A stretch of 64,000 bases of DNA from Moniliella sp. 'wahieum'. Its lineage: Eukaryota. Position 1 is the stretch's first letter; every line of letters starts with the position of its first letter. The notes beneath the pieces were generated by a model. It searched no databases. It was not told the origin of the DNA and was given only the letters and a program-made list of their open reading frames with translations. The DNA is taken from contig RSEE01000005.1 in assembly GCA_003971905.1 (NCBI GenBank), forward strand, positions 1,054,001 through 1,118,000. The letters are read 5' to 3'. Shown here in pieces: positions 17,587 to 56,053 of this stretch. The position numbers were made by a program, and so were the translations under genes.

Positions 17587-17685
17587 TCTCCCCTCTGGGA
17601 GTCGAACCCAGGACATTCAGAGCGGACGGTCCGTCCAAGCTTGACCACTTACAATCTGACGCTCTTCCAACTGAGCTAAGGAGAG
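17587..17685 (-). tRNA. tRNA-Tyr(GTA) with 26-nt intron
   Basis: Acceptor CTCTCCT/AGGGGAG, D arm GCTC..GAGC, anticodon arm TCAGA-TT-GTA-A[intron]C-TCTGA, T arm CTGGG-TTCGACT-CCCAG, followed by oligo-T terminator. Confidence 0.95.
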
Positions 17686-44860: not shown

Positions 44861-45615
44861 ACTCAGCTGCGCAAATGACGATCTCTACCAGATGCAGGGG
44901 AAGCAGAAGCGAAGAAGATACCTGTGTAGGAGCAAGGGCCCAAGGTTGGGAGCAGGGCGGTAAGAGAAGAATTAACCACGGCACACTAATGATGTGTCTC
45001 ATTGGGGATGGGCCACCGCTCACATGTCTACCGTGCTCATTCGTATCCTTGCGCGCTGCATCCAGTCTGGAAGGGAATGGGGGGCGCCAGAGGGTCTTGC
45101 AAGACCTGCTGGCGGACAAGCAGCACACGCCAGACGAGCAGGCCGGTTAATAAGTGTTTCTTTGTTCCAGCCCTTAAGCTCTGAATATGATATGAATGCA
45201 ACAAAGAGATGTGTTTGCAACTCTGAAGTAGTGTCACTTGCTCTCCAAGCGGAAGTGTGAATAGCATGGTACCGCGCCAAGGAGAAAAGTCAGTTGGGTC
45301 TCCATCAACCGCCAGGTGCCGATGAACAGAGAGTTGTGGGAGGCATGCAGGACTGATAGGACAGGATAACTGATGCCTAAGACAACTGCGGGAACAGGCT
45401 GTGTAAAAGAGCCGACATGGTACCAAGCCAGCATATCCTCAGGCTTCATAGAGAGTGTAGAACTGTAACTAGTGACTGGACAATAGATTATTCAAGTCCG
45501 TGCTTCACTCCCTTCTAACCCATTCAGAACTCGCCACCGACCCACATGTGTACCACATTTATCGTGACAGCAGACGTACAAAATTAACGTTTGGTGCATG
45601 TGCACATTATAATGG

Positions 45616-45832
45616 TGTAAGACCGGAGGAACCCAAGGGATTGGGTGAAGAACCTCTGGAAATGTAGAGCAATGCAATCGCGATGGTGGTGGTTAAGGTC
45701 TAAGCCTTGTGCCACACCTAGAGACAGGGGTTCAGACAAGCCTGAGTATACACGTGGAGGCTTCGGAGGACAAATCAGGGGTGAAGGGTGATGAGGCGCC
45801 TTGGCCTAAGTACGGGACCACGGGTCCCAACA
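45616..45832 (-). repeat. 3' LTR of the copia element
   Basis: Identical to 50959-51175 by eye. Confidence 0.97.
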
Positions 45833-45897
45833 CCCCCCCGGGCCAAGGGAACGAAAGAAGCCCGTTGGCCATCAACAAAAGAAAAGTAGAAAGGGGA

Positions 45898-48800
45898 TCA
45901 GCGCGAAGAAAGAGAAGCCAAATCGAAATTGTTACGCGCAGAAATGATCTTGGGAAGAGAAAGAGGTTTGGTGAACCAGTCAGGGAGATGGTGTGCACCT
46001 GGAGTGTAGTGGACTTTAATTTCGCCTCGGTGGATGCGTTCCCGCACCTCGTGGTACGAGACGTCAATCTCCCGTATTTTGCCTAGGCTGCCGAGCTTTT
46101 CGGCCAACGCTTTGGCAGCGGTGTTGTCAACAAAGAGCTCAATCGGGTGATTAGCCTTGCAGACACCAAGTTCAAACAGTATGTTGCGAATGAATAGAGC
46201 ATCTCGAAGGCCATCTCCCATGGCTAGGTATTCAGATGCTGCTGTGTTGCTCACACCTTGATTTTGGGACTTGGAGCCCCAGGATACAGGCACACCGAAA
46301 ACAAAAACAACATGGCCCGAAACGGAGTGAGAGTTGCTCTTGTCTGATGCAAAGGAGGCATCGGTGTGCAGCTCGAGTAGAGGGCGAGATCGGTTGGGTG
46401 TGAGGCACAAAGAGTAGTCAGACGTACCGGCGAAGAAACGTAATAGGTCCTCCGCTGCGCGTCGGTGGGCGGCGGACGGGTCGTCCATAAACCGCGCTAA
46501 AAAGGTAGCCGCAAAGAGGGCATCAGGCCGGGACATACGAGCCGCCCACAAGCTGGATCCGACAATAGAACGGTAGGCACGGTGCTCGTCTCGAGTGGCA
46601 CGCTTTTCGTGTTCGGGTCGCTTGGGAGGCGGAAGTTGGTGGCCGATTGGAAGGTAGCGGGGCCGGTGAGGTGATATGTCATGCGCGGCAAGCGTCTCAG
46701 CGATGAATTTGGGTTGGCTGATGTACAGTCGTCCATCGATACGGTCGTATTGGCAGCCGAGATGGAAACGTAGGGGGCCGTTGGACTTAATTTGGATGCT
46801 GCGCCTTAATTCCACTAAGAATTCATCATACGCTTCTTGGGACCGACACGCGACCAAAAAGTCGTCAGTGTGGACGGCGATTAGGATCAGGCCAAGAGGT
46901 TCGGTGCGACGTATGAACAGGCAAGGCTCTGATTTTAGGCTAGTGAAGTGGAGTCGGTCGCAAAGGAAAGTGCGGAGCCAATCTCCAAAGTTGGCCCCGC
47001 TCTGGTGCAGGCCATAGAGACTTTTCTTGAGTCTCCAGCAATGACCGGGCGCTTCTGGGAAGAAGGGGGGTGGTCGAACATAGACGAGCTCGTTGATATC
47101 GGCATAGAGGTAGGCAGCTTCCACATCGGCAGAAAATAAGTGGAGGCCATCAGCTTCGGCCAACGCAATTAGCGTGTTGACGGCAGCAGTACGAACGGCA
47201 GGAGCAAAAGATTTCGCCCATGTGCCAGGAACTTGCCGGTGCCCTCCCACAACGTAGCGGGCACGGTACTTGAGGAAGTTAGCATCCGCATCCGTCTTAG
47301 TACCTATGACCCACATGCCGGGAAGGGGTTTGATCCCTGGGGGGATGGGTACAACTTCCTTCACGTCACGCTCGTCAAAACGCCGAAGCTCGAGGCGCAT
47401 TGCCTCGAGTACGCCATCAAAGGCAGGGTGACCCACCAACTTCTTGATGTTCTTGGGGGCCACCGGGACCCCATCGGTGGTCAGTATGACCTCGGTGTCA
47501 CTTGCCGCGGATTCGATTGCGAGTGCAATGGGGGGCGAGCTTGGCTCCGAAGCAGGTAGCATGGATGTGTCCGGCGCTGGTCCGAAAATACTCACCAAAG
47601 CCTGCATTCCTAGGGCGGAGAGGGCGGCCGGGTTGCCAAAGATGCTAGGGGCCTTGTTGACGAGCAGGGAAAAGGTGCCATCGCGCAAATTGTCGTTGGC
47701 TGGAATGGACAGGTCGAGGGGTGGAGCGTTGATACGCGCTTGGCGAACGGGATTGCGACGCACGAGTGCGGGGACGGCTGTATCGGTCAGGGGCACGGTC
47801 ACGGGGGCGAGCGTGTCGGTGGGGGAGAGAGGGGAGGGGGATAGGGCGGGAGAGGAAGGGGAAGTGGAAGAGGGAGGGGAAAGCAGGACTTGGTGGCCAG
47901 TGTCAACGGCATCTTCTGTGATAGTTTCATTTTCTTCGGCTTGCTTTGCCTGGCGTTGTGCCATGCCTGCGGGGTCAGATGCAACAGGTTGGGGGGATAC
48001 ATGTGGGGGGTTGGAGTTGGTGGGAGTGGGGCCAGGCTCTGAATTCTCATTTTCGTTGGCTTGAGCCGGGCGATGTGCCTCTGTTTTTCGTTCTTTTAAT
48101 TTTCTTTTTCCATGGGGGGCATTGTCTTTCTTACCATTAGTATCGCGGGTCAGTTCATCTATCGCAAAACGCACACGCCGGGGTGGGGAGCTGTCTGACT
48201 TCCCACCAGCACCCATTTCTCCGCCCCCCCGCACCTCTCCGCCACCAGCAGGGACAAGGGGGTCCAGATGAAAGTGCGTGGGATATTCGGTGGTGTACGG
48301 GACATGCGTCCAGGTGGACGGCTTTTTCCAACGGAATCCAACTTGGCCGTCGTCCTGGTGGATGGCAAAGAGCCACCCCTTCGAACCGCGGCCGTGCCCG
48401 TAACCCACCAACATTGCTGGGACGGCCCGCGGACCAAGTTTGCCGCCCTCGCGTTGGTTGGGCAATAGGTGCAGGTAGGCAAGAGTGCCAAAACCGCGCA
48501 TGCGAAGGGAGGGTTTGAAGCCATGGTACCGGACAAATCGGCTGTCCCCACCCAGTGCTTTCGGCGGCGACTGGTTGTGTGCATATGTGGCCGCCAACAA
48601 GCTGTGTTCCCACCACTCGTCGGGAGTCAATCTGTTGGCGATTACCATGAGTCGAGCGCGATCCGTAATCGATCTTATGGCGCGTTCGGCGACCCCATTG
48701 GACGCACTTTCGCCAGGATTGGTGCGCTCGCTCACTACTCCCAGCTCGCAGTAAAACTCGTCCATTGCGGTGGTGAGTTCAGGCGCATTGTCAGAGCGGA

Positions 48801-50852
48801 CCGTCTGAAGGGGGCGGTCGGGATGTTGGCGATGCTCGCGCCGGATGAAGGCTTGAAGTTCGGCTGTGGCATCACCCTTGGACACCAGGGGTAGCGTCCA
48901 GGTATACCGCGTAAAGTCGTCGACAATGATAAGGGCGTAAGTATGACCCCGCCGCCTTGGCGGGATATGTCAAGGACGTCGAGGTGGAGGAGAGAGAAAG
49001 GGCGAATGGTTCGGATTGGGCGTCCAGTCGTGGCGTGGGGTGGGGCAGTGGCTCTGCTTAATGCGCATGGTGCACAGTGCCACGAGGACCGGACTAAAGC
49101 GATGTCGCCACTGTTGACCCGTTCGAATGCTGGGTCATCCGACGTGAGGGATGAAAGTTGATCTAGAGGTGCATGATTCCATCGGATGTGGGCGTTTTTC
49201 ACCTTGACCAGGGTTGCATCAAGGTTGAGTAGCGAAGTGGCGCTGTTGGCTGTGGCTGTCGTATTGGGCGCCAGAGTAAGGGAATAGCTTGAGTCGGCGG
49301 CGAGACGAAAAGGTTCGCCGTGTCGTCCGAGATAGAGACCATGGCCACCTGGAGGGATCCAGCTGCCAATGCCTGCGATAGATAGATGGTAAGCGCTGAG
49401 CAGGTTGGTCGGGAAGGTGGGGCAGTACAAGCTGCCGGGTAGGTGGATGCGGATAGGGGCTCCGTTCTGGGTTTGAATGTACATAGAGATGGTGCCAATG
49501 CCTTCAGTGTATGCGATCTGTCCGTTTGCCACTGCTATGGGCTCGCGGTGTGGACGAAGATTGATAAACGCACTTCGTTCATTGAATACGGATGGTCTCG
49601 CACCTGAATCGTGTTGCGCAGGGAGGTTGGCTGGCTTGGGTGGTGTAGTGGCTGCCATAGGGGTTACTGCATGGGCAGATGAGGTGGTCTGGGCTGTCGT
49701 AGCCGGCCGGCTAAAGTGGCCGCCACGTTGGCCACCACGGTGACTTCCTCTGTACCCGCTGCCACCTCGGCCTCGTCCGCGGCCTGTCACCGTACTGCTT
49801 GTTTGGCTGTGCGACGTGGCTTCCGAAGGGGCCGTACTGGAGGGAGCTGGGCTTGAACTGGAGGTACTGCCGTAGTTGGAGCCTTTGAGTTCGCTCACTG
49901 CTCGGCGCAATTCGGCGTAGCTGCTGTTACGATGGAGGTGCAACCACCCCTGATCAGTAACGCCTTTCCGTAGCATCTGTGCTAGACCAATCTCGTCCAG
50001 CTTGGACTTGGACGTCATCTCGTACTGGGTTACCGCCACAGTGAACTCATTCAGGTATTGGCGGCCCGACTTGGTGCCCATTTTGAGAGTGAGAACCTTT
50101 ATGAGGATATCACAGATCTCAGTGTCTGAAACGGTGCCGTACAAATCACGCAGAGCATGATAGTATGCAGACCCTAGAGCCGGCGTGCCATCGCCGGTGA
50201 TCTGCTGGACGACGTCGGAGTCTATCCACGGGAGTAGAATGTTGGCCAAGTGAGCGTCCAGTTCTGCGTTATACCCGTCCAGGGCCTTGCCCTGTTCCAG
50301 ATGCTCACGCGCTCCAGGGATAATCTGGATACGAGGGAGGAAGATCCGGGTCCATAACCAAAACGAGCTGTTGTTGTGGAAACGCTCGTGGTACGGCACG
50401 TTGCTGCGAGTGGCACTACGGAGGAGCTTGTCGGGAGTCAAAGCCCACGGGTTGTCGTCGACGGCCGGAGTTGACGATAAGGCACCTTCGTTCTTGCTAG
50501 CATTGGGTGGATTCTCACATGATAACATGACAATGGCTTCTGTGGTCGTCTTTTCGCTGTACCCAAGCTTGATACCAGTGTCCTGTAGCTGTTTGAGGGT
50601 GATGTGTTCGGGAAACAATTTGAACATGTTGCGAATGCGGTCGGCGAGGGTGGCGACGTCGTTCGCGGTGTTGTCGGGGCCCACGGGGGTGGGTTGAGGT
50701 GTAGGGGTAGATTCACGCGATGGTGTCAGCGGCGGGGAGGCGTGGTCAACTCCGACGGGAGTGGTGCTCTCTTCTGCTCCGGCAGTTGGTGAAGTAGGGG
50801 TTGAGGAGTTGAACCAAGACTCCTGAGTCTGAGAGCTCATGATGCTTGCCAT
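45898..50852 (-). CDS. Copia Gag-Pol polyprotein (one frameshift at ~48940)
   Basis: Protease DSGA; HHCC (HIRWNH..CAPC); integrase HLD..VDDFTR..RSDN..NGVAER; RT KYRARYVVGG, LKKSLYGLHQS, HTDD; RNase H TDASFA..EY..DN..DWFTK. Confidence 0.95.
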
Positions 50853-50935
50853 TAGCTTACGCAGTTCGAGCAAGCGCTTGTGGATAGGGCCGGCAGCGGA
50901 GGACCGAAGAGTGTAAGAGTGGAAGGCTCAGGGCT

Positions 50936-50958
50936 GAGCGTCAAGAGGATTGTAACTC
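50936..50958 (-). other. Bipartite primer-binding site complementary to the spliced tRNA-Tyr anticodon arm
   Basis: Plus strand GAGCGTCA-agag-GATTGTAACTC equals spliced tRNA-Tyr positions ~22-29 and 30-40, directly abutting the 5' LTR. Confidence 0.85.
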
Positions 50959-51175
50959 TGTAAGACCGGAGGAACCCAAGGGATTGGGTGAAGAACCTCT
51001 GGAAATGTAGAGCAATGCAATCGCGATGGTGGTGGTTAAGGTCTAAGCCTTGTGCCACACCTAGAGACAGGGGTTCAGACAAGCCTGAGTATACACGTGG
51101 AGGCTTCGGAGGACAAATCAGGGGTGAAGGGTGATGAGGCGCCTTGGCCTAAGTACGGGACCACGGGTCCCAACA
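50959..51175 (-). repeat. 5' LTR of the copia element
   Basis: Identical to 45616-45832 by eye. Confidence 0.97.
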
Positions 51176-51278
51176 AATGGAACCGTACATACGCCGCCAA
51201 CAGGTCAGCACAGACGCTAGCTAAAGGTCTAACAGCGAACTCGATACCTGCAAGCATGGGGGGGAGAGAGGCCGTATT

Positions 51279-52253: not shown

Positions 52254-55200
52254 ATGGACCCCGAAACGGCCAACGACGTCGACAATGACGAGCACATGCT
52301 CGACGCAGCAACCGACGGGGCAGTGAACCATGCGGATGTCCATGCCTCTTTCTACGGCGACCCCGCCGACCGCCCCGAGGTTGTGTCCGGGCCCGAACGT
52401 CCTGCCGGCCTTCCGAATGCTGCAAGCCTGCCGAAGCAGACGCGTTCCTTTGCACACGATCTAGCCCCGGTAGCAAAACCGCGTCTACTGGCCTGTATGA
52501 GTCCCTCTCTTTGGATCAACAGCACGCCGCCATTGCCCATCTCGCCCAGGCTCCCAATCTCACTGCTCCCATCAAGGAGGTGGCCGACAAGTGGCAGCTG
52601 CTGCCTGCCTTCCTGCAAGTCAAGGGTCTGGTCAAACAACATATTGACAGTTTCAATTACTTCGTTGACTATGGCCTCAAGGAGATTCTCAAGGCCAACC
52701 AGCTGGTCACCAGCGATATCGACCCCAAGTTTTACTGGAAGTACACTGACATCTACGTCGGCATTCCCTCCCGCCCGGGCGGTGACGGCCCGTGGTGGAG
52801 CCCGGCCCGACGATCAAGGGGTCAGGAAAGGGGTCGCTCAAGAGTTTCAAAGGCGCGTTCAGCCCACACGAATGCCGTCTCCGTGACATGACGTACAGCG
52901 CGCCGATCTATGTCGACATTGAATACACGCGTGGCGGCAAGATCTACCGCCGCAAGCATATCGACATTGGGCGGATGCCCATCATGCTCCGCTCCAACAA
53001 GTGTGCTCTCTCTGGTCGAACCGAAAAGGAGCTAGCGCAAATGAACGAATGCCCGCTTGACCCAGGTGGTTACTTTGTGGTAAAGGGACAAGAGAAGGTT
53101 ATTCTCATTCAAGAACAGCTCAGCAAAAACCGAGTGATCGTTGAAGCCGATACCAAAAAGGACATTGTGTCCGCCAGCGTGACATCGTACGTGCCCTTCA
53201 TTCCGGGTACCCTCGCATGGTGGTACTGACTCGGTGATGGACTTGACCAGCTCGACAGCCGAGCGGAAGAGTAAGTCATATGTCGTGAGCAAGAACAAGT
53301 GCGTCTACTTGCGCCACAACAGCATGACCGAGGATATTCCCATTGTGATAGCATTCAAGGCTATGGGCATAACAACGGACCGCGAAATCATCGAGACGGT
53401 AGCTGGAACGAACGAGGCATTCCGCGAGCTGTTCAGCAACTCGATCGAGGAGGGATGCCGACTCAAGGTATTCACTCGAAGGCAGGCGCTCGACTATATT
53501 GGGCGCAAGGTCCGTCGCATGATGCGTCCAGGCGTTCCCCGGCGGCCAGCGCACGAAGAGGCGCTGGAAGTGCTAGCCACCGTTGTGATAGCTCATGTGC
53601 CAGTTGAGAAGCTGAACTTCCGTCCCAAGGCGATCTATCTTTCCACGATGGTACGCCGCGTACTGGCTTGTGTCCTGGACCCGAGTCAGGTCGACGATCG
53701 AGACTACGTCGGCAACAAACGTCTCGAGCTGGCGGGGCAGTTGCTCTCGCTATTGTTCGAGGACATGTTTAAAAATACAACTATGATCTCAAGATGTCCT
53801 TTGACAAGGTCATGAAGAAGCCACCGTGCAACTGAGTTTGATGCCAATCAGCACCGCGCCTACCATGCCGACAACATTACTTCTGGTTTTGTCCGCGCCA
53901 TCAGCACGGGCAACTGGAGTCTCAAGCGTTTCCGTATGGAGCGTGCAGGCGTCACTCATCTTCTCTCTCGACTCAGCTACATCTCTGCCCTGGGTATGAT
54001 GACACGCATCTCGTCTCAGTTTGAGAAAACGCGCAAGGTATCGGGTCCGCGTGCATTGCAACCTTCACAGTGGGGAATGCTCTGTCCTTCTGACACGCCC
54101 GAAGGCGAAGCTTGTGGACTGGTGAAGAACCTGGCCCTCATGACCCATATCACGACTGAGATTGACGAAGCGCCACTCGAAAAGCTGGCTTATACCCTGG
54201 GATGCGAGGACGTGGCGCTGCTGACTGGCGCCGAAATGCACCACAAGGGCAGTTTCCTAGTATTCCTCAATGGCCGAGTGATTGGCTTGACCCGCGCACC
54301 CACTCGCTTCATCGCCGCATTCCGCAAGTTGCGACGAACAGGCAAGATATCGGAGTTTGTCAGTGTGCACACCAACACCCAACAGCAAGCTGTGGTGATT
54401 GCCTCTGATGGTGGGCGAGTGTGCCGCCCGATGATCATTGTCGACAATGGCAAGCCAAGGGTCAAGGACAGTCACATCGCACTCCTTAAGCGGGGGAGGA
54501 TGTCGTTTGATGCCTTTTTGGCAAAGGGGTTAGTCGAGTACTTGGATGTGAACGAGGAGAACGACAGCTACATTGCCCTTTATGAGAAGGACATTCTCCC
54601 TGGGTATACTACCCATCTAGAAATTGAGCCGTTTACCATTCTTGGTGCGGTAGCCGGACTGATCCCATACCCCCATCACAACCAATCTCCTCGAAACACA
54701 TATCAGTGCGCCATGGGTAAACAAGCCATTGGGGCAATTGGCTACAACCAGCTCAACCGGATTGACACATTGCTCTACCTGATGGTTTACCCCCAACAGC
54801 CGATGGTCAAGACCAAGACGATTGAGCTGATTGGGTACGACAAGCTGCCTGCCGGTCAAAATGCGATGGTAGCGGTAATGAGCTACTCGGGGTACGATAT
54901 TGAGGACGCGCTGATCATCAACAAGAGCTCGATTGACCGTGGCTTTGGGCGGTGTCAAGTGATGCGCAAGACAACCGTGCAGATCAAAGCGTACCCCAAC
55001 GGCACGAGTGACCGGATCGGAGATGTGCCCAAAGACGAACAGGGCAACGTGCCCTTCCGTTACCAGGTTCTAGAGGATGACGGTTTGGCCGCCGTTGGAG
55101 CCGAGGTGAGCGACGGGCAGGTGTACATCAATAAGCAATCGCCTGTCTTGGCCGCGGGCACGGGCGATATGGACCCGGGCATGGGTGCGAACCCGGTGGT

Positions 55201-56053
55201 GATCGGATACAAGGGCACCGCGCCCAGCTACAAAACCAAAGTGCCTTCCTACGTTGACCAGATCATGATCACCGATAGCGATGGAGACCAGCAAATCATC
55301 AAGGCCCTCCTGCGCCAGACCCGCCGCCCCGAGTTGGGAGATAAGTTTTCATCCCGTCACGGGCAGAAGGGTGTATGCGGGCTAATCGTACGACAAGAAG
55401 ACATGCCCTTTAGCGACCGGGGGATCTGCCCGGATATTATCATGAACCCCCACGGTTTCCCGTCGCGTATGACTGTGGGAAAGATGATCGAATTGCTTGC
55501 GGGCAAAGCGGGTGTGATCAGTGGGGAGCTCCAGTACGGCACCGCCTTTGGGGGCTCCAAGGTGGCAGATATGTCACGCATCTTGGTTGAAAATGGCTAC
55601 AACTACGGTGGCAAAGAGTACATGACTTCGGGCATTACCGGCGAACCGATGGAGTGCTACGTGTACTTTGGCCCGATCTACTACCAGAAGCTGAAGCACA
55701 TGGTGCAAGACAAGATGCATGCGCGTGCACGTGGGCCCCGTGCGCTGCTAACGCGCCAGCCAACCGAGGGCCGTTCCCGCGATGGTGGCCTGCGTTTGGG
55801 AGAGATGGAACGACTGTCTAATTGGGTACGGTGCCACCCCTTGCTCTTGGAGCGACTAATGATCTCTTCCGATGCATTCTCGGTGGACGTGTGTCAACTT
55901 TGCGGCCTGTTGGGCTACAATGGCTACTGCGGCCATTGCAAGACGGGGGCGCAAGTGGCCAACATCACGGTGCCGTATGCGACTAAGCTGCTGTTCCAGG
56001 AACTGATGGCGATGCAGGTTGTGCCCCGCCTGGTGCTGGAAGACTCAGTGTAA
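52254..56053 (+). CDS. RET1: RNA polymerase III second-largest subunit (RPC2)
   Basis: [66 protein letters not shown]; intron 53187-53250. Confidence 0.98.

Follow-up and report, generated by a model that had tools for sequence, protein, structure and literature searches.

Among the modes of reverse transcription, priming by half-tRNAs is a minor one and little understood: which nuclease generates the primer, and by what rules a primer is chosen, are still unsettled matters. A fungal copia element, Tca2/pCal of Candida, is said to use an internal fragment of tRNA-Arg. The use of a half-tRNA as primer is the defining trait of the hemiviruses (copia, Ty5, 1731 and Osser), whose cDNA synthesis starts from the 3'-OH of nucleotide 40 of the tRNA, as described in passages of PMC1181622. 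In plants, passages of PMC6317226 place this mode of priming solely in Ty1/copia lineages: Osser, Bryco and Gymco-II have a half tRNA-Met, and the Bianca lineage presents a half tRNA-Ile in 92% of 260 elements. The fungal FunCo1 copia clade carries an 11-nt site, ATTAAGAGTCT, that complements an inner stretch of tRNA-Lys (PMC5445492, in part). Bipartite primer-binding sites have been described for Ty1 and Ty3, and in Ty1 the segments are parted by a small internal loop and there are contacts with the D arm (PMC5371799, in part). In addition, sequence resembling the central portion of tRNA-Tyr has been observed immediately 3' of the 5' repeat of bivalve TRIMs, and it is left uninterpreted in the passages of PMC6934838 that present it.

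The element analyzed in this work lies in a window of 64,000 nucleotides (the whole stretch of DNA that was analyzed) from Moniliella sp. 'wahieum'. It is a complete Ty1/copia LTR retrotransposon of 5.56 kb, located on the minus strand and bounded by its two LTRs. Both LTRs present TG..CA ends, and a 5-bp duplication, CCATT, is found on both sides of the element. Its features are the following.

51176..51180, minus strand: target-site duplication CCATT, upstream copy, read directly
50959..51175, minus strand: 5' LTR, 217 nt, TG..CA, equal to the 3' LTR at 217/217 positions
48735..50852, minus strand: open reading frame for gag, protease and the N-terminal integrase, with its ATG at 50852; Pfam Pol_BBD
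45898..48885, minus strand: open reading frame, in a different frame, for the remaining integrase, reverse transcriptase and RNase H; RVT_2 1.4e-37, SH3_retrovirus
45833..45839, minus strand: run of 7 G adjoining the 3' LTR, read directly
45616..45832, minus strand: 3' LTR, 217 nt, TG..CA, aligned with the 5' LTR
45611..45615, minus strand: target-site duplication CCATT, downstream copy, read directly

The order of the domains (Pol_BBD, then the remainder of the integrase with SH3_retrovirus, then RVT_2 at 1.4e-37) is that of Ty1/copia elements. The integrase motifs are located upstream of the reverse transcriptase in both P0002 and P0003, as in copia-type elements, and rve is annotated for P0003. 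As to its function, the run of 7 G at 45833-45839 is likely the polypurine tract.

Two tRNA genes were found in the window.

17587..17685, minus strand: gene of tRNA-Tyr(GTA), from which the primer would derive; ARAGORN with introns, Rfam tRNA 55.2 bits
56463-56543, minus strand: second tRNA gene, Rfam 49.6 bits

The tRNA-Tyr(GTA) has 73 nt after removal of a 26-nt intron (17623-17648) located at the canonical 37/38 position, and a T run is present downstream of the gene.

On the minus strand, the sequence that follows the 5' LTR (50958-50936) reads GAGTTACAATC-CTCT-TGACGCTC. When this leader is compared with the spliced tRNA-Tyr, the following blocks can be distinguished.

50948..50958, minus strand: block 1 of the proposed primer-binding site, GAGTTACAATC, 11 nt, exact complement of spliced tRNA-Tyr nt 30-40, adjoining the LTR
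50944..50947, minus strand: bulge CUCU, 4 nt, on the element side, between tRNA nt 29 and 30
50936..50943, minus strand: block 2, TGACGCTC, 8 nt, complement of tRNA-Tyr nt 22-29
50926..50931, minus strand: block 3, CTGAGC, 6 nt, complement of tRNA-Tyr nt 10-15, colinear
50920..50925, minus strand: CTTCCA, 6 nt, complementary to nt 17-22 of tRNA-Tyr, out of order and the weakest part

Block 1 covers two stem nucleotides, the 7-nt anticodon loop and two further stem nucleotides of tRNA-Tyr. The end of the LTR is set by the alignment of both LTRs and by the CCATT duplication; therefore, the 11-mer adjoins the LTR with zero spacer. Furthermore, the final two bases of the LTR (CA) are complementary to tRNA nt 41-42, which gives 13 contiguous nucleotides. 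With zero mismatches, the 11-mer occurs a single time in the window. After the 4-nt bulge, block 2 resumes the tRNA-Tyr without any gap on the tRNA side. The TGGAAG block (50920-50925) and block 2 cannot pair simultaneously. The first-pass annotation of this DNA had read the same leader, had found no TGG in it, and had described a 19-nt complement once the 4-nt bulge is removed, a match running across the intron junction of the tRNA-Tyr(GTA) at 17587-17685, and two 6-mers matching the D arm. All of this was reproduced: the 19 nt are exact as 11 nt (nt 30-40) plus 8 nt (nt 22-29), and the 6-mers correspond to nt 10-15 (50926-50931) and nt 17-22 (50920-50925), with the qualification that the latter is out of order.

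The match of block 1 runs across the intron junction (37/38) and stops at nt 40. It extends over 11 nt when the spliced tRNA-Tyr is considered and over 8 nt with the unspliced gene. Since the match crosses the junction, the primer would have to derive from the spliced tRNA; the support for the spliced form amounts to 3 nt (nt 38-40), or to 5 nt if the CA of the LTR, which is constrained, is also counted. Considering placement, register and complementarity together, we propose that the element carries a hemivirus-style primer-binding site whose partner is tRNA-Tyr, and that the primer would be a 5' fragment of the spliced tRNA-Tyr. From the sequence evidence, we assign to this reading a probability of about 0.7.

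According to the proposed mechanism, the tRNA-Tyr(GTA) transcript would be spliced first. The whole tRNA-Tyr, or its 5' part, would then anneal to the leader RNA, with nt 30-40 paired to the 11 nt that adjoin U5; nt 22-29 and nt 10-15 would probably pair with blocks 2 and 3, leaving the 4-nt bulge on the element side and a small internal loop between the helices. Cleavage of the anticodon stem in its 3' strand, at the bond that joins nt 40 to nt 41, would produce a 3'-OH on C40, placed opposite the G at 50958. From this end the reverse transcriptase would extend into U5, the first copied base being the last base of the LTR (A at 50959). The remaining steps would be those usual for LTR elements: strand transfers, initiation of the plus strand at the run of G that precedes the 3' LTR, and insertion into a target site that becomes duplicated over 5 bp. 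In eukaryotic tRNAs, G26 often carries a dimethyl modification; this modification disfavours a G26-C pair and would weaken block 2. The half-primer mechanism had already been put forward in the first-pass annotation, and its identity as tRNA-Tyr, its nt-40 register and its dependence on splicing fit the sequence tests carried out here; the use of the tRNA-Tyr RNA as primer, the site and mode of its cleavage and the in vivo pairing of blocks 2 and 3 are what we infer from them. If so, the tRNA-Tyr case would add a primer that needs prior splicing, with an order of events (splicing, then the cut at nt 40/41) that can be read from the sequence.

The tRNA splicing endonuclease could itself be considered as the source of the primer, which would then be the 5' exon (nt 1-37); the match at nt 38-40 would be coincidental, and the integrase would trim three extra bases off the end of the cDNA. 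A 5' half finishing at nt 37 is a natural product of splicing, and with the unspliced gene block 2 stays matched in full and block 1 over 8 nt. However, the complementarity runs past the spliced junction as far as nt 40, or nt 42 with the CA of the LTR, and a 5'-exon primer predicts a different LTR end, while the observed end is the one expected of a primer that finishes at nt 40. In addition, the splicing endonuclease leaves a 2',3'-cyclic phosphate, which is not extendable by a polymerase and counts against such a primer. On balance, we consider a 5'-exon primer very improbable.

Two other modes of priming were considered and rejected. In the first 40 nt after the LTR there is no TGG, and priming from the CCA end of a tRNA, as in classical sites, is therefore ruled out. 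As regards self-priming of the Tf1 type, no complement of at least 8 nt to the site was found elsewhere in the element, and the LTR holds just two 6-mers; a better match with the element's own 5' end, which had been named beforehand as an outcome that would speak against tRNA-Tyr, is thus absent at that length.

The tRNA comparison covered the two tRNA genes present in the window, and this leaves some room for the idea that the tRNA-Tyr match is due to chance or irrelevant, the primer being instead an unseen tRNA or the element's own 5' end. The estimates obtained speak strongly against it. The chance that an LTR-adjoining 11-mer complements any site in 50 tRNAs is about 7.5e-4, and that of a contiguous 8-mer taking up the same tRNA beyond a 0-8 nt bulge is about 1.4e-4; for blocks 1 and 2 the joint chance is about 1e-7. 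At least two 6-mers within the next 16 nt are expected with P about 0.0015. It should be noted that, over the whole element, six matches of at least 8 nt to tRNA-Tyr were found, with 5.6 expected; 8-mers are therefore at chance level element-wide, and block 2 counts through its position alone. The predicted duplex of the leader with tRNA-Tyr nt 1-40 reaches -39.6 kcal/mol, far stronger than the duplexes obtained with shuffled tRNA halves (n=500; mean -13.6, sd 3.4, best -24.6 kcal/mol). When the leader and tRNA nt 1-40 are cofolded, -55.1 kcal/mol is obtained, in comparison with -25.3 and -5.5 kcal/mol for each RNA alone. The second tRNA of the window gives -28.6 kcal/mol with the site, a value reached solely by scattered long-range pairing. 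Taking into account these values, the lack of a TGG and the lack of a complement of at least 8 nt elsewhere in the element, a chance match is hardly credible. Given the logic of the GTA anticodon, it also seems unlikely that another tRNA would match equally well.

A pattern scan for the bipartite site (bulge of 0-8 nt) was also carried out on viral contigs and prokaryote records. It gave one match in a viral contig and 12 in prokaryotes, none of which overlaps a tRNA gene called by ARAGORN. LTR elements are not expected in such records, and these matches were treated as chance.

Another aspect to discuss is how much of the leader takes part in priming. The colinear likeness between the leader and the tRNA-Tyr holds at 27/31 positions of nt 10-40; it is interrupted by a single insertion of 4 nt and by an altered D loop. 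No difference is located outside the D loop and that insertion: the two strands of the D stem, nt 26 and the strand of the anticodon stem are all preserved. As judged on a single copy, this pattern would favour selection for pairing rather than even decay. One could then think of the 39 nt at 50920-50958 as a working mirror of the tRNA-Tyr 5' half, in which nt 10-40 would be captured in three helices, with the D-loop bases skipped and the 4 nt acting as a hinge. Such an extended, tRNA-specific docking site might have arisen by copying a new half-tRNA into the leader at a primer switch. We offer this extended docking tentatively, as a conceivable though doubtful reading. If true, the way in which half-tRNA-primed elements exchange one tRNA for another would become visible in this isolated fungal lineage, and retrotransposition would be tied to the splicing of tRNA-Tyr. 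The extended complement to the D arm also constitutes a natural test of the docking of a whole 5' half.

The same blocks admit a simpler history, in which the site consists of just the 11-13 nt by the LTR, still read by a tRNA-Tyr half, and the outer blocks are a relic of the primer (nt 10-40), copied during plus-strand synthesis and later drifted by indels. Several facts are in line with it: 27/31 colinear positions exceed what priming needs, a lone 8-mer is at chance level across the element, and in the fold of the free leader block 3 and part of block 2 form a small hairpin of their own that mirrors the D arm, leaving the 11-mer unpaired. Moreover, known half-tRNA sites are short, as is the 11-nt motif of FunCo1 (PMC5445492, in part). 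Nevertheless, differences limited to the D loop and to one insertion point, with the stems intact, look more like the result of selection for pairing, and the two-segment site of Ty1, with its small internal loop and D-arm contacts, is a precedent for extended pairing (PMC5371799, in part). For these reasons we consider the relic unlikely. Both histories keep tRNA-Tyr as the half-tRNA that would read the nucleotides next to the LTR.

With tRNA-Tyr as the putative primer, the element can be compared with the systems mentioned at the beginning. It resembles the hemiviruses, as far as the passages of PMC1181622 and PMC5371799 describe them: a Ty1/copia element with a site that adjoins the LTR and complements the anticodon stem-loop and not the CCA end, and a predicted primer 3' end at nt 40, from which cDNA synthesis would start. 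It differs from the hemiviruses of these passages in that the tRNA is tRNA-Tyr and not the initiator tRNA-Met, in that the match spans an intron junction, and in that colinear blocks continue into the D arm. In a strict sense, the genus Hemivirus is defined by initiator tRNA-Met, and the element falls outside of it: the anticodon implied is GTA (Tyr), and the matching gene is that of tRNA-Tyr. Furthermore, its pol protein sits on a long isolated branch, and the likeness to hemiviruses concerns the primer site and not a phylogenetic grouping. With Bianca it shares the condition of a Ty1/copia element with a half-tRNA other than initiator Met; Bianca differs in using tRNA-Ile, in an edited form, and in its plant hosts (PMC6317226, in part). 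FunCo1 differs in the tRNA (tRNA-Lys) and in its ascomycete hosts, and in the passages of PMC5445492 the authors term the site 'classical' and half-tRNAs are not discussed. As in Ty1 and Ty3, several template segments are complementary to one primer tRNA; the partner in those elements is the 3' end of the full-length initiator tRNA, and in Ty3 the second segment is about 4.8 kb off (PMC5371799, in part). Bivalve TRIMs, likened here by their description, have an internal tRNA-Tyr match at the expected position of the primer site. They are non-autonomous animal elements, for which the authors found no canonical site and, in the passages of PMC6934838, proposed no half-tRNA primer.

The first-pass annotation took a Tyr half-primer and this bulged layout to be possibly undescribed in the literature. 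The first point stood in part, since no tRNA-Tyr half primer for an autonomous element was found in the literature searched, and older or subscription papers may hold one. Within that literature, tRNA-Tyr is absent from the main-text passages and five supplement files of PMC6317226, and neither GAGTTACAATC nor its last 8 nt, TTACAATC, is present in six supplement files of PMC5445492. The novelty is nonetheless smaller than had been supposed: non-iMet half primers (Ile, Lys), the bipartite sites of Ty1 and Ty3 and a tRNA-Tyr match in bivalve TRIMs are already published, as the sources cited above show. The gain in knowledge is incremental. On a practical side, LTR annotation tools that seek tRNA 3' ends alone would score this element as one without a primer site.

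As we mentioned before, the two LTRs are equal at 217/217 positions. We conclude that the insertion is very recent. P0003, a protein on record with 1210 aa, reads through, whereas the window copy shifts frame near 48948, in the integrase core. Identity between P0003 and the window copy is 98% before the frame change and 93% after it (1016 alignment columns, 31 mismatches and 36 gap columns). The qualification 'young' given in the first-pass annotation is thus correct for the insertion, but the copy itself is altered inside the integrase with respect to its near-identical relative. Barring an assembly error behind the frame change, the window copy is probably not autonomous. Because the frame shifts inside the integrase, this copy may have been mobilised in trans, or may bear private mutations, with the 4-nt insertion of the leader possibly among them.

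Few close relatives could be found. Among the best 150 matches from 1.84 billion cluster representatives, P0004 (48%) and a 163-aa fragment (78%) are the only ones above 36% identity. A quick tree groups the family with P0004 alone, as an isolated pair whose branch measures 1.74 and is set apart from 43 metagenome copias. The lineage of the element is isolated and its family is almost unsampled. A protein scan of viral contigs with P0002 returned 20 pattern matches and no relatives. The scan of metagenomes with the P0003/P0004 alignment was more productive, with 175 relatives, from which 80 loci were kept. All of them are distant (24-37% identity over stretches of at least 80 aa), and neither a gag match among these relatives nor a tRNA gene in the 80 loci was found.

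The register was also checked independently, with a rule that describes an anticodon stem-loop read backwards from nt 40 and does not depend on any given tRNA gene: the first two nucleotides of the site are the reverse complement of its nt 10-11, an A stands opposite U33, and a pyrimidine stands opposite R37. A random 13-mer passes about 1 time in 128. The window element passes the rule at offset 0, with GTA as the implied anticodon, and this speaks for the tRNA-Tyr reading. The rule was then applied to the metagenome copias. The scan for repeat pairs was limited to metagenome loci of at least 4 kb and gave pairs in 26 loci; L005 and L012 were dropped as repeats of L004 and L011, and the 24 remaining loci were kept for the survey, several of whose repeat pairs are contig-end overlaps or simple repeats and not true LTRs.

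By eye, GGTTATGAG-type sites, which are of the half-Met kind, were recognized in 8 of these 24 loci (L015, L016, L017, L020, L022, L023, L029 and L052), located at the repeat ends called by BLAST or a few nucleotides from them. The strict rule flags four of the eight at offset 0 or -1, three with anticodon CAT and one with a TAT variant, and the other four fail it through substitutions. Seven of the eight loci belong to one clade; therefore, they represent about two independent lineages. The strict rule also flags L030, L043, L054 and L074, at different offsets, and we took these flags as chance level.

Some additional observations were made in the same survey. In seven of the loci with GGTTATGAG-type sites (L015, L016, L017, L020, L022, L023 and L029) an AGCTTCC box is present about 20 nt 3' of the site. 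These seven all belong to one clade, and in the window element CTTCCA occupies a similar position. By sequence likeness, AGCTTCC/CTTCCA may be a recurrent D-loop complement. In L043, AGGTGAGACCT is located 2 nt ahead of the BLAST repeat end and passes the rule, with CTC (Glu) as the implied anticodon. It could be a candidate for a further half-tRNA type with a BLAST-called LTR boundary, and we mention it as a weak lead. As a contrast case, L004 (4957 onward) presents a classical TGGTATCAGAGC site directly 3' of the repeat.

Regarding the second tRNA gene of the window, the ARAGORN calls conflict: the run without introns gives Ser(cga), whereas Ser(act) is called if an intron of 9 nt is taken out. 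The gene folds as a normal cloverleaf with an extended anticodon arm, and, as judged by eye, it fits a tRNA-Arg(ACG) with a 9-nt intron at 37/38. Finally, an open reading frame of 705 aa at 53936-56053 (plus strand) encodes part of Rpc2, which is the second-largest RNA polymerase III subunit, and served to place the host: a basidiomycete, probably a little-sampled relative or member of the Ustilaginomycotina. The best relatives of this protein that bear a name are found in Thecaphora frezii and Pseudozyma flocculosa (76% identity), with one further record at 95%, followed by other Ustilaginomycotina and then by other basidiomycetes.
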